Source: a virus. From it: a stretch of DNA of 64,000 nt. Under the pieces are notes generated by a model that was given only the letters and a program-made list of their open reading frames with translations, had not been told where the DNA came from and made no database searches. Shown here in pieces: positions 14,360 through 63,585 of this stretch. Both the position numbers and the translations under genes were made by a program. Location: IMG/VR virus record IMGVR_UViG_3300021141_000001; one strand, given 5' to 3'. The stretch's first letter is position 1; each line of letters opens with the position of its first letter.

Positions 14360-14752
14360 ATGATACAATTACCTACTAAAATATATGTTGATAATTCACC
14401 TGTTCATGGGTTGGGTGTATTTGCTAAAGAAAAAATTAACGAAGGTGAGCTAATTGAAGAATGTACAATATTAACTTTACCTATCCAGAAAGGTGAGGAT
14501 TCTAATCTATTTATAGATTACAGATTTAACTTTCCATCTGGTTTGGAATGGGAAGAACAAGTTTTGGTAATGGGTTGTGGTGGTATTTACAATCACTCTA
14601 ACACACCAAATGCTCATTGGTATTCTAATAATGAAAAAAGAACTTTTTGCTTTGTTGCTTTAAGAGATATTGAAGTTGGTGAAGAAATATTTACCTTCTA
14701 TGGTGATGAGTCCTACTGGAATGATGGTAGAACATACATTGATGTTAAATGA
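14360..14752 (+). CDS. SET-domain methyltransferase
   Basis: SPVHGLGVFA, YNHSNTPNA, ALRDIEVGEEIFTFYG. Confidence 0.9.
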   Translation: MIQLPTKIYVDNSPVHGLGVFAKEKINEGELIEECTILTLPIQKGEDSNLFIDYRFNFPSGLEWEEQVLVMGCGGIYNHSNTPNAHWYSNNEKRTFCFVALRDIEVGEEIFTFYGDESYWNDGRTYIDVK

Positions 14753-15141
14753 CAAAAGAAGAATTCATACTATTTATTGAAGATTTAGGATTTACTCAGA
14801 CTTGGATGTCTAAATCAAATGGATATTCTTTAGCAACTGATTCCGCTGATCCAGCGTATAAAGTTATTGGTAATCCTAATCAAAATTTGATGGCTTTTGC
14901 TGACCAATTAAAAATCACATTAGATGATGAAAGAGGAATTGCTCAACTTTCATTATCACAAATGAGTACTCATATGATGGCTGGTAAGAATTTTGGAAAT
15001 TTTCAATTATCAACATTTGGTAATGATGGTGATTTTCAATTAGAGATATTTATGAGTTTTGTAAAAGGTGCTTTTAAGAAACCACCTAATAATATTATTC
15101 AATATATGAGAGATAAAAAAATTAGGGATATATTAAAATAA
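14749..15141 (+). CDS. Hypothetical protein with C-terminal RxxK tag
   Basis: Ends MRDKKIRDILK. Confidence 0.6.
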   Translation: MTKEEFILFIEDLGFTQTWMSKSNGYSLATDSADPAYKVIGNPNQNLMAFADQLKITLDDERGIAQLSLSQMSTHMMAGKNFGNFQLSTFGNDGDFQLEIFMSFVKGAFKKPPNNIIQYMRDKKIRDILK

Positions 15142-47273: not shown

Positions 47274-47318
47274 ACAAAAAATGAAAACTTTTCTATAACA
47301 AGAAAAGTTTTTTGTTTT

Positions 47319-47651
47319 ATGAAAACACCAAATTTATTTCCCGTAGCTATGAAAATTGCTGCTCAAACTATTGGACAAGATTTAGTCAGTGTTCAACCAA
47401 TGGCTGGACCAGGTGGAATGACTAAAGAAGAAAGAGAAAGAATTGAAGCCGAGATTAAACAAAAGAATCGTGATGGTAAAATCGATTCATTAATTGAAGG
47501 ATCAGAATATAAAGAAGAAAAATTAGAAGAACATCCTGATTATAAACCAGGTAGTGGTTGTCAATTATTTTATATGGATTATACTTACAATTCTCCAACT
47601 CACAAAAAAACAAGAAGAAGTAAAAAGAAAAAGAAAGATGGGAGTATTTAA
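47319..47651 (+). CDS. Small protein containing a gp23-type major capsid protein fragment interrupted by an RxxK-tag helix
   Basis: LFPVAMKIAAQTIGQDLVSVQPMAGPGG ... NRDGKIDSLI ... GCQLFYMDYTY. Confidence 0.7.
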   Translation: MKTPNLFPVAMKIAAQTIGQDLVSVQPMAGPGGMTKEERERIEAEIKQKNRDGKIDSLIEGSEYKEEKLEEHPDYKPGSGCQLFYMDYTYNSPTHKKTRRSKKKKKDGSI

Positions 47652-47823
47652 GAGTCCAGGAGTTTTTGTTAAAGAAGTAGATATATCTATTGTTAGACCA
47701 ACTTTTTCCAAAAGATATTCAAGAAGAATAAAAATAGGTAAAATATTTGATATAGATGTTCCTAATATTATTATAACTTCTACTCCAAAAGGAGGACCCT
47801 CAAACTTTCCACAAATCTGGTGA
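47638..47823 (+). CDS. 61-aa mosaic protein: tail-sheath N-terminal peptide, RxxK tag, terminase coupling-motif peptide
   Basis: ATG at 47638; MGVFKSPGVFVKEVDIS / SRRIKIGKIF / IIITSTPKGGPSNFPQIW. Confidence 0.65.
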   Translation: MGVFKSPGVFVKEVDISIVRPTFSKRYSRRIKIGKIFDIDVPNIIITSTPKGGPSNFPQIW

Positions 47824-47853
47824 TGAAAACATGTTAGAGTAATATATACTCTA

Positions 47854-48189
47854 ATGATAAATGTTTATTTGATATGTGCCGAATTTGAAGGAAGAAGATT
47901 GTATAAGATTGGTTATACAAGAAGAGATGTCTCTAAAAGAATTAAAGAGTTGAAGACTGGTAACGGTTCTGAAATGTATGTTATAGATTCTTTTAAGTCA
48001 AAATGGGGAACTAAAATTGAATCACAGTTACACAGAACATTTAAAAGTAAAAAGATAAATGGTGAGTGGTTTGATTTAACTGATGAAGAAGTAAAATCAT
48101 TTATGGAAAAATGTAAATCTTCACATGATGTGATGGAACTAATTACCACCAACAATACTTACTACTTAGAAACTGGTAAACTATATTAA
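47854..48189 (+). CDS. GIY-YIG (T5orf172/MUG113-like) nuclease-domain protein
   Basis: VYLI...YKIGYT....KRIKEL.TGN...E..LH..F......GEWF. Confidence 0.85.
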   Translation: MINVYLICAEFEGRRLYKIGYTRRDVSKRIKELKTGNGSEMYVIDSFKSKWGTKIESQLHRTFKSKKINGEWFDLTDEEVKSFMEKCKSSHDVMELITTNNTYYLETGKLY

Positions 48190-52585: not shown

Positions 52586-52777
52586 ATGTTGATCGTAGAG
52601 GTTGAAGGAAAACTAACAATTGAAAAAGCTCTTAAAATTCTTAAAAGAAAATGGGACAAAACTAAAGCTATGAAAGAGCTTAGAGGAAGAAAAGAATTTA
52701 CTAAAAAGTCTGTAAAAAGAAGAGCTGAAGTAACAAGAGCCGCTTATATTCAGAAGAAATACAGAAGTAATGATTAA
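52586..52777 (+). CDS. rpsU: Ribosomal protein bS21
   Basis: MLIV.V.....IEKALK.LKRK......KELR.RKEFTK.SVKRR. Confidence 0.88.
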   Translation: MLIVEVEGKLTIEKALKILKRKWDKTKAMKELRGRKEFTKKSVKRRAEVTRAAYIQKKYRSND

Positions 52778-53069
52778 GAAGTTACTTAGTTTATTTCCCA
52801 ATCAAAATAATAAAACTTATGATTTAGGAAAATTACAAAAGTCTGGATTTATATCATCTTTACCTGATATGTCTGGTTGTCCTAATTGTAAAAGTAAAAA
52901 TATATCTTGGAAGTTCTTTATACCAACAGATGGTTCTAAACCAACTATTCCATCACAAAGTGTTTGTAATGATTGTGGATATAAAGATGAAAAAGGTCAG
53001 TTTGAAATGACAAATAAATCGTTACTTAGAGAGAAAAAAATTAATCAAATATTAGATGAGTTTCAATAA
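52770..53069 (+). CDS. Zinc-ribbon protein with C-terminal RxxK tag
   Basis: CPNC...CNDC; LREKKINQIL. Confidence 0.6.
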   Translation: MIKKLLSLFPNQNNKTYDLGKLQKSGFISSLPDMSGCPNCKSKNISWKFFIPTDGSKPTIPSQSVCNDCGYKDEKGQFEMTNKSLLREKKINQILDEFQ

Positions 53070-57318: not shown

Positions 57319-60300
57319 TTATGGTGTAAGAACAATCCCGACCTTGCCAGCAACAGCAAATGGATCAGTTACACTTGAATACCAACCGTTTGTTGATATT
57401 GTAGATGCTGTTGCTGACACAATAGTTCTTTCTTGGTCGGTATTTTGTAAAAATATATTCCATATGTGACAAGAAGATGTTCCGCTCCAAGACATACCTC
57501 TGTTTAATATTTGTAAAGTATAATCATCTGTCACATAACCATTAAATTCAAATGATGAACCATACCAGTTACCATTTCTCCAAAGACCATTTTCCCAGAA
57601 AACATTAAAAGCATTCATATATTGAGATGTTCCATTTTCCCATATCATACCAGTAGCTGTTCCTATAATAAAGTTTCCATTTTTCCAGTGTGAGATATAA
57701 AAATCACTTCCATCTAAATCACCATTTTCCCAATAACAAGTATTATCATTAAAATTAAAAGATGCTGTTGCTGATCCATTTCTTTTTACATAAGGATTGA
57801 ATGAACTATTTTTAAATTTACCTCTCTCAAATACTCCGTTTAACCAAACAGAACTACTCATCTCGCCGCTAGAATGACTAAAAGTTCCGGATACCCAAAG
57901 ACCATTTTTAAATTTAGCACTTCTAGGTGGTTTATTTACACCTTCTAAACTCATAGCCATTACTTGTTTTGTGAAAAACTTTTGGTCTTTAACAAATTTA
58001 TCTTTAATATTTGTAAAAATACCATCTCTCCATTTACCCCAATATGATTGACTATAAGAATCAACAAATATATTAGCGTTTCCACTTGTTAATCCTGAAA
58101 CTGGATTTCCACCACTTCCTTGAAACTCACCATATAAAAATACACCATTATTCCATACTCTACCTTTAAATACACCACCATTAAATTCACCTGTGTACCA
58201 AGTTGAATTCGTTAAACCATTAGCATTTCCAAATTCACCACCATTAAATGTTCCTTTTTCCCAACCATAATCTAATTGTGATGTACTTTCACTTTGTGTC
58301 CAGCCATAAGCTGATGTAAACTTACCACCATTAAATGTTCCGTTTTTCCATTTACCATTAGTTATGAATTGACCACCATTAAATATACCTTTTTGCCATG
58401 TTGCTGAGTGTGTAGCGTTTTGTAATATATCAGAGCCAAAAACACCATTAACAAAAATACCATTTAACCAGTTTAAGTTTTGATTTAAATTTTGATAATA
58501 ACTTGTATCAATAGAATATAATGTAGCATTTTCAACAATAGCATAACTCACAGTACCATTATATAAATGTGTATCTAAAGTAGAAACTTGATTACTACCG
58601 ATAATACCTTTGTTAAAGACACCATCATACCATTTTGAGTAGTTAAAATTACCATTAGAGAATGTACCAGACTCCCAATCACTCTTATAAAAATCACCAT
58701 CAATGAAATTACCACTTTGCCAAGAGTTTCTATTATTTGGCAAAGTTCCTTTTCTATAATAGGAATTTATATTTTCAGAATAATAATAAGGACTCACAAC
58801 ACTTGATGTTCCATTAAATGTTCTTGAGTTATAAAACCAACCATTTAAGAAATCTCCTTCAATCCATCTTGAGTCTCTGACAACACCATTACTAAATGTA
58901 CCACCATTCCATATTGAGTTTTGTATAATTCCTGAATTCCATACATCATCACCTTGAACAAAGAATGAGTTAATATATGTAGCATTTGATAAAATATTTG
59001 AGTTGTTAGAAAATATAGCGTCGGAAATAACTAAATTTCTAGCTTTTGCTAAATTTGTAAGATCTTTATCTAAATAGTTATATTCTAAATTTTGAATTAA
59101 TGAACCAGATAAATAAGTTCTTCTCATTAATCCTGATTTAATATTTGATTTACTTATTTTAAGTTTTTTTAAATGACCATATCTATTCTCCGCCTTATTA
59201 GTGTAGTAATAACCATTTGATGCTGATAAACTAATTATTTGACTAGCAGTTCCAATTTCTCGTAGTTTATAAACACCATTTGTATTTGAAATAACTTTAT
59301 AAGCATCAGGAATTCTAGAAACAGTTCCCCAGTTAAAATCCACAGAGTCTAAAAATACAACATCTCCAACATTTATTAATTTAGATTCGGGGTAATTAGA
59401 ATCATAAGATGTAGTTGCTGTAATATAATTTGAAGAATCAATTGATAAGTTATAATTTTCACCTAATAATGTTTGTACAGTTATATTATTATCATTATTT
59501 GATTCAATATGAGAGCCACTATTCCAATCAGAGTTTTCAATTAAACCACTATCAAAATCAGCATCTACTATATAAGCACTTGATACATCTATAATATTAT
59601 TTAATGGAGTAAGACTTGAAGAGTTATAGTTAAAATCTAAATTTTCTGTTGTTAAAGATCCTGTTTTATCATATCTACTTGACCATATATCAATAGAATA
59701 ATATTTACTATTAGGATTTGTACCAGCAATCTCGGTATAATATTTTGGTCCAGTGTATGGAGGAAATATAGCAGTAGATGTGTAATACTTATAAGAGTTA
59801 TCAGCAGGTGTTGATAAGAAAGCAGAATATTCATATCCTTTTTTACCAACTGTTGTTACTCCAAAGTTTTCTTCTGTGTATTCTGTCCAAGAACCTATCT
59901 TGAATTTTTTATCAAAAAAGTTTATAATATCTTTAGATAGATTATTAATACCTAAACCTTTAATATAAAATTTATCACCTGTTCTTAATCTATCATATCC
60001 ACTTTTATCAATATAAAACTTATAAACTTTCTGAACAACGTCATTAATAGAACTGAATGTAACAGAAGTTATAGCAGAAAACTCAGATGCTGCTAATTCA
60101 TCATAGGCATATATTTTAATAATATTATCACTATTATAAAATGAATCTTTCAATACTGAATTATTAAAATATGAGTTTATAGATTTACTTTTTTCAAACT
60201 TTGAATTATTTGCCTTTGTGTTTTTTAATTCAGAATTTTCTAAATATGAATTATTGAACTCACAATCATTAAAAAATGCTTGTTTAATTTCATTTGTATA

Positions 60301-62451: not shown

Positions 62452-62682
62452 ATGAAAGAAGAATATTACAAAGACATATTTGGTGGTAAAAAATATGGCG
62501 ACTATATGGTTTATGGTTTAGATAAATCTAAAGAATCTACATATAGTGATTACACTGATTTACTTGACCAAATGAACGCAACATCCTTCACTGAAGAATC
62601 TGAAGAACAAAAAGCTATTCGTGAAGCAAAAGAAAAGGCTGAGAAAAGAAATAATAAGATTGACCAACTTTTAGGAGAATAA
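62452..62682 (+). CDS. Small protein with C-terminal RxxK tag
   Basis: Ends KRNNKIDQLLGE. Confidence 0.6.
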   Translation: MKEEYYKDIFGGKKYGDYMVYGLDKSKESTYSDYTDLLDQMNATSFTEESEEQKAIREAKEKAEKRNNKIDQLLGE

Positions 62683-62683
62683 T

Positions 62684-63247
62684 ATGTCACAAATATCAAT
62701 TGTTGATTGGATTACGGCTTTATTAATAGTCGTGCCTTTATTTGCTTTACTTATATCAATTCCAAGTTTTATCTCTATGTATAAACTTGGATTCAAAGCT
62801 TATGTAGAACAATTGATACTTTTGAAAACAATGTTGAAAAAGATATCATCTGGATATAAAATTACTCAAAATCAAGTTTATAATTACAGCGGTGTTAGTT
62901 ATAATGGACCAAAATCAGTAACACAAGTTGAAACTAATCATTTCTTTCCAATAGTTATTAATAAAGATAATCTCTTAGTTCTTAATAAGAAAGAAGGTCC
63001 ATTTAATACTTTACATATTCAGTATTGTAAACATGAAAATGATAACTGGGATAATAATATGGTTGAGATAAAAACCAGCAATTGTTTATTTACTCAAATT
63101 CTAAATGACAGATTTCAAAAAAAAGTTGATAATCTTATGAAAGAGTCTGTTCAACTTGATGGAGTTGAAAATCTAAATGAACTATTAAATAGTGAAATAA
63201 CTTCTATTAAAAGAGAAGATAAACTTAATGCTTTATTAAATGATTAA
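62684..63247 (+). CDS. Membrane-anchored protein with C-terminal RxxK tag
   Basis: N-terminal TM helix; ends KREDKLNALLND. Confidence 0.6.
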   Translation: MSQISIVDWITALLIVVPLFALLISIPSFISMYKLGFKAYVEQLILLKTMLKKISSGYKITQNQVYNYSGVSYNGPKSVTQVETNHFFPIVINKDNLLVLNKKEGPFNTLHIQYCKHENDNWDNNMVEIKTSNCLFTQILNDRFQKKVDNLMKESVQLDGVENLNELLNSEITSIKREDKLNALLND

Positions 63248-63404
63248 AAGAGACATTGTAATAGTTGACCATATCAGTATGATAAGTGCTACTACGGTAG
63301 ACCCATCCATATTGGAAAAACTTAATATTCGTGTTAAGAATATTCGTAAGTATAGAGGTCGTATTGAAAAACGAAAAGAAAAAATAAAAAGAATTTATGA
63401 ATAA
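63240..63404 (+). CDS. 54-aa RxxK-tagged protein with SF4-helicase Walker-B-like peptide; not in ORF track
   Basis: MIKRDIVIVDHISMISATTVDPSILEKLNIRVKNIRKYRGRIEKRKEKIKRIYE; overlaps both neighbours by 8 nt. Confidence 0.6.
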   Translation: MIKRDIVIVDHISMISATTVDPSILEKLNIRVKNIRKYRGRIEKRKEKIKRIYE

Positions 63405-63585
63405 AGAAACTCTTGATATATTTGGTCAATATCTAAATGGTAATAAACAAATTATGATGTTGAAGGCTAGGCAAACTGGTAAGTCAAGTGCCACCGCTTC
63501 TTTAATGGCTTGGAAACATCTTCATAGTAAATATGAAAGAGCAAGAACGAGAAAAGAAACCATAAAACGGCTTTTTAATATATAA
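63397..63585 (+). CDS. 62-aa RxxK-tagged protein with terminase-large-subunit Walker-A-like peptide
   Basis: IMMLKARQTGKSS; ends TRKETIKRLFNI. Confidence 0.65.
   Translation: MNKETLDIFGQYLNGNKQIMMLKARQTGKSSATASLMAWKHLHSKYERARTRKETIKRLFNI

Follow-up and report, generated by a model that had tools for sequence, protein, structure and literature searches.

How a protein of only 61 residues comes to resemble the tail sheath at one end and the large terminase (TerL) at the other, with a recurrent peptide between them, is the question raised by positions 47638-47823 (+) of the 64,000-nt stretch of IMG/VR virus record IMGVR_UViG_3300021141_000001 (hereafter the window). An earlier note, made from the sequence alone, had described this ORF as a chimera of two unrelated genes joined by a tag and had proposed a modular bait design. 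Translation of the interval, stop codon included, gave the 61-aa product (P0001) with the three segments in the order described, and the start lies 14 nt inside an upstream 110-aa ORF at 47319-47651 (+). The observation in the note was thus confirmed, whereas its interpretation was only partly supported, as set out below.

Conservation and genomic context

We first examined whether the ORF is a gene. In public metagenomes, 141 homologue clusters were found, 67-94% identical over the full length, 56-83 aa long (mostly 56-61 aa) and located on contigs of up to 630 kb. In a 43-sequence alignment, conservation runs from end to end, with Y27, R29, K32, I33, K35, F37, I39, I45, T47 and G53 invariant. 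An exhaustive profile search of 1.8 billion representatives returned 47 proteins at E <= 0.001, all of 32-104 aa, so that no fused long form exists. A chance ORF, or a longer product from a GTG start at 47554, was rejected because the homologues start at the Met that aligns with sheath start codons. Pfam and PHROGs scans of P0001 gave no hit, and look-alikes in the ESM Atlas scored 0.76-0.77, which is noise level.

The window has 29% G+C, and its closest records are two uncultured phage genomes of 635 and 642 kb, LR745206 and LR756502, at about 68-75% DNA identity; these relatives were used for genomic context. Gene order is the same in the window and at four loci of relatives (L016, L017, L001 and L002): a 319-aa gene, a ~103-aa gene, a mini major capsid protein (mini-MCP) gene, the P0001 gene, a T5orf172/MUG113 gene, two small genes and an SbcC-like gene. 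The start overlaps the upstream gene by 14, 11, 4 and 4 nt or follows it after a 1-nt gap, which fits translational coupling. Fusion to the mini-MCP by programmed frameshifting at the A-rich overlap is unlikely, because the relative frame is +1 in the window, L016 and L017 but -1 in L001 and L002. The dN/dS ratio was below 1 in five of six pairs (range 0.37-1.04), indicating constraint that is moderate and concentrated on particular residues. The ratio of 1.04 in one pair, together with the T5orf172/MUG113 gene directly downstream in all relatives, could suggest a functionless relic of a partial duplication of the 5′ end of the sheath gene, carried along beside a nuclease gene. We consider this very unlikely, since an intact frame of 56-61 aa is kept in over 140 clusters with invariant residues across the whole length, since coupling and synteny are conserved across genomes only about 70% identical in DNA, and since the same design recurs for MCP, portal and ClpC fragments (see below).

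A terminator-like hairpin with a T-rich tail and the loop TATAACAA lies at 47283-47312 (+), ending 6 nt before the mini-MCP start codon (-11.9 kcal/mol, z -3.2), and is conserved, with sequence changes, in L016, L017, L001 and L002. Downstream, a perfect palindrome at 47833-47855 encloses the promoter-like TAATATATA and reaches into the start codon of the T5orf172 gene (-8.6 kcal/mol, z -3.7); L001 keeps the palindrome with different arm letters. A recurrent TAATATATA-like box lies 5-30 nt before many start codons of the window (for example 45241, 46962, 35813, 8111 and 21103) and before those of MCP, sheath and TerL in the relatives, while a second box, TATAAATAAAAAATA, precedes 16177, 48225 and 48902. 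These are probably two promoter classes.

The N-terminal segment resembles the sheath arm

Searching the two halves separately against sheath and TerL had been named in advance as the test of the chimera reading, and both halves gave positive results. The N-module (47638-47703, residues 1-22) carries the S-P-G-V..E.D.S motif of the tail-sheath N-terminal "handshake" arm. The relatives encode a sheath of 1283-1295 aa, the C-terminal part of which matches T4 gp18 residues 462-649. BLASTP aligned P0001 residues 1-19 with sheath residues 5-23 at a pairwise E of 5e-4, and this was also the best hit among the 215 large proteins of LR756502 (E 0.024). In addition, tblastn against phage genomes retrieved sheath N-termini of Rhizobium and Vibrio phages, although not significantly. 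The arm is closer to the general myovirus consensus (S-P-G-V) than to the sheath of the clade itself (R-P-G-I), which is unexpected if it must fit the phage's own sheath.

A peptide tag shared by many proteins

The tag region (47710-47760, residues 25-41) contains the core R29-x-x-K32-I33-x-x-I36-F37, which fits R-x-x-K-[IL]-x-x-[IL]-[LF]; within the family R29, K32, I33 and F37 are invariant and I36 is nearly so. A loose form of the motif, R-x-x-[KR]-[ILMV]-x-x-[ILMV]-[LFIYMV], occurs 12 times in the proteins of the window against 1.4 +/- 1.1 in shuffles, and 8 of the 12 lie within 6 residues of a C-terminus (examples are encoded at 14749-15141, 52770-53069, 62452-62682, 62684-63247 and 63240-63404). 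In the stitched 642-kb relative LR756502 (whole record, LR756502.1), it occurs 133 times against 21.7 +/- 5.6, and 94 of 1001 proteins end with it against 1.08 +/- 1.0 expected. The consensus there is R-[DEN]-x-K-[IL]-[ND]-x-[IL]-L followed by 0-8 residues. In P0001, by contrast, the tag does not lie near the C-terminus, because 24 residues follow it, and it is a basic variant (R-R-I-K-I-G-K-I-F) of the usual R-D-x-K-I-N-x-I-L. Of the 130 tagged proteins in the relative, 94 carry the tag at the C-terminus, and internal tags exist in 36 proteins besides P0001, among them the mini-MCP and the portal mini.

Codons for the same residues differ between copies, so that conservation is at the protein level and a by-product of a repeated DNA element or a promoter at gene ends was rejected. 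A Tat signal and a clamp-binding, FtsZ-tail or MinD-type membrane helix were also considered; none fits the consensus well, and none was tested. A Pfam scan of ten tag carriers of the window revealed no informative domain. The tag is the only element of P0001 that AF2 predicted with any confidence (helix 25-36, in a model with a mean pLDDT of 51, too low for a fold search, which was not run). Many proteins start with a leader of the kind M-K-x-x-K-K-Y-x-x-F-x-x-E, resembling the T4 capsid targeting sequence (window 45241, 46203, 46962 and 50974(-); 161 of 1001 genes in LR756502.1 by a loose pattern that was not compared with shuffles). This set hardly overlaps the C-terminally tagged set, with 5 shared against about 15 expected.

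The C-terminal segment: TerL motif III or a sheath strand

The C-module (47761-47820, residues 42-61) is a strand plus turn in which residues 44-52 are 8 of 9 identical to motif III of the relatives' TerL. A profile of the family found T4 and RB49 gp17 as the three best PDB matches, all at motif III, with E 0.12-0.3, and only residues 42-59 aligned to gp17. An hmmsearch with a profile of residues 42-61 against all 1001 proteins of LR756502 singled out TerL at E 3e-4, the next hit being at 0.99; TerL, not sheath, is therefore the only significant match of the module in this proteome. All three likenesses are thus real and above chance.

However, the derivation from two unrelated genes was not supported as stated. 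Aligned with real sheaths, including those of Vibrio and Rhizobium phages, the protein is collinear with them throughout, the strand and turn lying where the first core strand of the sheath (h-h-h-G-V-S-K-K-G-P-x-N-x-P) lies. An hhalign comparison of the family with 23 clade sheaths (probability 88%, E 3e-6, 44 columns) aligned P0001 residues 1-59 with sheath residues 5-48, with a single 14-residue gap at the tag, whereas the comparison with TerL gave 36% and E 3.8e-4 over 17 columns. The post-tag halves of the wider family alone aligned to sheath residues 34-64 (probability 92%, E 5.6e-7) and to TerL at E 6.7e-5. Distant family members are decisive for descent: P0246, P0247, P0250, P0269, P0271 and P0274, all longer members, run on into the next sheath motif, G-P.N.P..I....D-F...F-G; P0271 begins with the clade-specific arm K-Y-K-R-P-G-I; and a graded series links the sheath strand, through P0274 and P0246, to the form in the window. 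We therefore read P0001 as a truncated sheath paralogue with an inserted tag, in which the TerL-like last strand is most simply a diverged sheath strand.

A true recombinant, with the C-module copied from the terminase gene by recombination between tagged mini-genes at the shared tag, is not excluded and is possible, though we regard it as less likely than not; as a claim about origin, it is compatible with any of the functions discussed below. It is favoured by the single outlier in the proteome-wide search, by the gp17 matches, and by P0251 and P0269, which resemble gp17 even more closely. Against it, the residues after the G (G-P.N.P) follow the sheath rather than TerL, the database-wide significance is marginal (E 0.12), and a nucleotide comparison of the C-module with the TerL and sheath genes of relatives was uninformative (24 of 30 against 19 of 30). 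With a motif III match and a sheath-strand position in the same segment, the data allow either drift towards TerL or a patch derived from it. Module swapping does occur in the family: homologues with other fragment combinations, which the earlier note had proposed to look for, are represented by P0283, a metagenomic protein of 84 aa composed of the sheath arm, the tag and portal residues 276-305 (BLASTP E 2e-5), and thus a true two-gene chimera.

Tagged fragments of other core proteins

The upstream gene (47319-47651) applies the same design to the capsid protein. It encodes an MCP N-arm/hairpin segment (Pfam Gp23, E 3e-4) that is 78% identical over 27 aa to residues 89-115 of the relative's MCP (E 3.5e-9), and a ~45-residue insert carrying a canonical tag splits what is one continuous segment in the real MCP. 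In LR756502.1, small tagged proteins (277261-277446, 501868-502047, 315773-316270, 316849-317310, 320919-321134 and 381760-382026) copy MCP residues 513-546, 421-451 and 8-129, portal residues 277-335 (the portal was confirmed by Pfam at 1.3e-57) and the UVR motif of a ClpC-like ATPase. This relative encodes a ClpC/ClpB-like double AAA+ ATPase with a UVR motif (440544-442667) and three ClpP-like proteases (58622-59143, 112104-112634 and 364599-365000), which together are a candidate hub for the tag. Tagged genes are absent from the 160-200 kb block that holds the sheath gene. In the window, a 62-aa tagged protein (63397-63585) resembles the TerL segment around Walker A (11 of 35 identical, pairwise E 0.057), and a 54-aa tagged protein (63240-63404) weakly matches residues 313-328 of a 444-aa protein of the relative (E 0.06); both matches are suggestive only.

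Possible functions

Taken together, the analysis shows a genuine, conserved micro-protein of a clade of ~0.6-Mb, T4-like, AT-rich phages, with its three likenesses, its enriched tag and the modularity of its family, whereas what the protein does is our inference. In the explanation that we favour, with no more than moderate confidence, P0001 arose as a truncated paralogue of the phage's own sheath gene that keeps the N-terminal arm, the strand that sheath subunits donate to neighbours in the handshake mesh, plus a remnant of the first core strand, with a basic amphipathic helix of 14-15 residues inserted between the two. The protein would be disordered on its own and probably works as a string of short linear motifs, a two-handed adaptor in which the arm would dock by strand addition on sheath subunits and the tag on the still unidentified partner shared by all tagged proteins, the phage's own ClpC-like/ClpP machinery being a candidate. 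This would couple sheath, and through the neighbouring genes capsid and portal proteins, to that partner for control of assembly or turnover. In phage P1, the sheath N-terminus pairs with the C-terminus of a neighbour and docks on the next ring, and the terminator completes the sheet at the top ring (PMC10304247).

Support for binding of the arm to sheath is weak. The predicted complex of P0001 with sheath residues 930-1293 scored 0.42, against 0.01 for the best of 3 controls. That mark was reached by 58 of 80 solved complexes and 2 of 110 mismatched pairs, but at 0.60 or under only 7 of the 80 reached it, as did both of the passing mismatches. The runs agreed in at least 26% of contacts, the pLDDT of the partner was 37-40, and, because sheath handshake complexes have been solved, the pass may reflect memory of them; whether the protein binds its parent is thus left undecided by this prediction, and no experimental or expression data exist. 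In addition, some family members lack the arm (P0253, P0255 and an 84-aa protein of L001), so that it is not essential to every member. The weakly supported arm-sheath contact could also suggest a minor virion part, in which the arm fills vacant handshake sites at one end of the sheath, next to the baseplate or the neck, and the tag helix anchors it to a neighbouring part. Strand donation by non-sheath proteins is established (PMC10304247), and the gene is coupled to a mini-MCP and sits beside genes with T4-like N-terminal leaders. We nevertheless consider this reading unlikely, given that the gene lies about 120 kb from the sheath and tail genes in the relatives, that the arm is lost in some members, and that a tag on about 9% of the proteome marks far too many proteins for one structural site.

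The bait function proposed in the earlier note remains possible, but it gained no direct support and appears unlikely. In this view, the mini-proteins display the most conserved linear motifs of core virion proteins to host sensors that recognise such motifs, either soaking the sensors up or using the tag to hand them to the phage's Clp protease. The fragments do sample hallmark, highly conserved segments, namely MCP residues 89-115 (a region equated with the T4 Gol peptide, which was not checked here), 421-451 and 513-546, portal residues 277-335, the sheath arm and a TerL motif-III look-alike; the arm is nearer the pan-myovirus consensus than the phage's own sheath; tagged genes avoid the structural gene block, as early or takeover genes would; the phage encodes ClpC-like and ClpP-like genes; and sensors that read short MCP motifs exist (Lit and CapRel, as cited in PMC13581612). 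However, the same 2026 survey reports that most Avs protein sensors recognise whole folds rather than short motifs, and it names no sheath sensor, listing tail sheath only among possible, not yet identified targets (PMC13581612). A motif that triggers a sensor would be harmful to express unless binding is non-activating, a buried TerL strand is an unlikely epitope, and no known anti-defence family matched in Pfam or PHROGs; binding or blocking of a sensor was not assayed, the host and its defence set being unknown.

A broader reading, which is doubtful but not excluded, is that these giant phages run a modular "fragment plus tag" system, in which short copies of the interlocking or most conserved segments of core proteins (sheath arm, capsid hairpin and C-terminal strands, portal, terminase-like strand, the UVR coil of ClpC) serve as recognition heads, and the shared tag couples whatever the heads bind, be it the phage's own unassembled subunits, subunits of a rival phage or host sensors, to a common phage machine such as its ClpC/ClpP protease. 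New specificities would arise by swapping modules at the tag. If the tagged fragments are functional, they would be a new way for a virus to address its own or foreign multimeric proteins, with recognition heads copied from subunit interfaces and linked by a common tag to one machine. Literature searches on decoy fragments, capsid targeting in jumbo phages and microproteins revealed no description of tagged mini-fragments of core virion proteins, nor of this tag. A tag on about one protein in ten of a 642-kb phage is also a ready handle for finding an unknown sorting, degradation or assembly hub in the largest known phages, almost all of whose genes lack a function, and every piece is short enough for direct testing with synthetic peptides.

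Comparison with known systems

Compared with contractile tail sheath proteins (T4 gp18 type; Pfam Phage_sheath_1), P0001 carries the arm motif at the same distance from the start codon and is collinear with sheath residues 5-48, but it has only 61 residues, none of the sheath core or C-terminal domains, and a 14-residue tag inserted after the arm. Tail terminator and sheath initiator proteins such as P1 gp24 share the proposed mode of action, in which a non-sheath protein supplies strands to the four-stranded sheet of the sheath (PMC10304247); those are folded proteins encoded among the tail genes, whereas P0001 is a disordered peptide encoded far from them, with a proteome-wide tag. With respect to motif III of the large terminase (Terminase_6N; the T4 gp17 coupling motif), the nine-residue strand and turn is 8 of 9 identical to the relatives' TerL and the spacing G-x3-F-x2-I-W matches gp17, but Walker A, Walker B and the nuclease domain are absent, and the segment sits at the position of a sheath strand.

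MicroProteins of plants and animals are small truncated paralogues that bind and modulate their parent protein and, like P0001, keep only an interaction element of a large multimeric protein; as far as our searches show they have not been described for phages, and here the fragment is joined to a shared tag and modules are swapped between fragments. Finally, short targeting or degradation tags, such as the T4 N-terminal capsid targeting sequence, encapsulin cargo peptides, and ssrA and adaptor tethering tails, are likewise short peptides shared by many unrelated proteins, mostly at a terminus, and conserved at the protein level. The tag described here differs in its consensus, R-[DEN]-x-K-[IL]-x-x-[IL]-L, in having an unknown receptor, in being carried by about 9% of a phage proteome and, in P0001, in its internal position.
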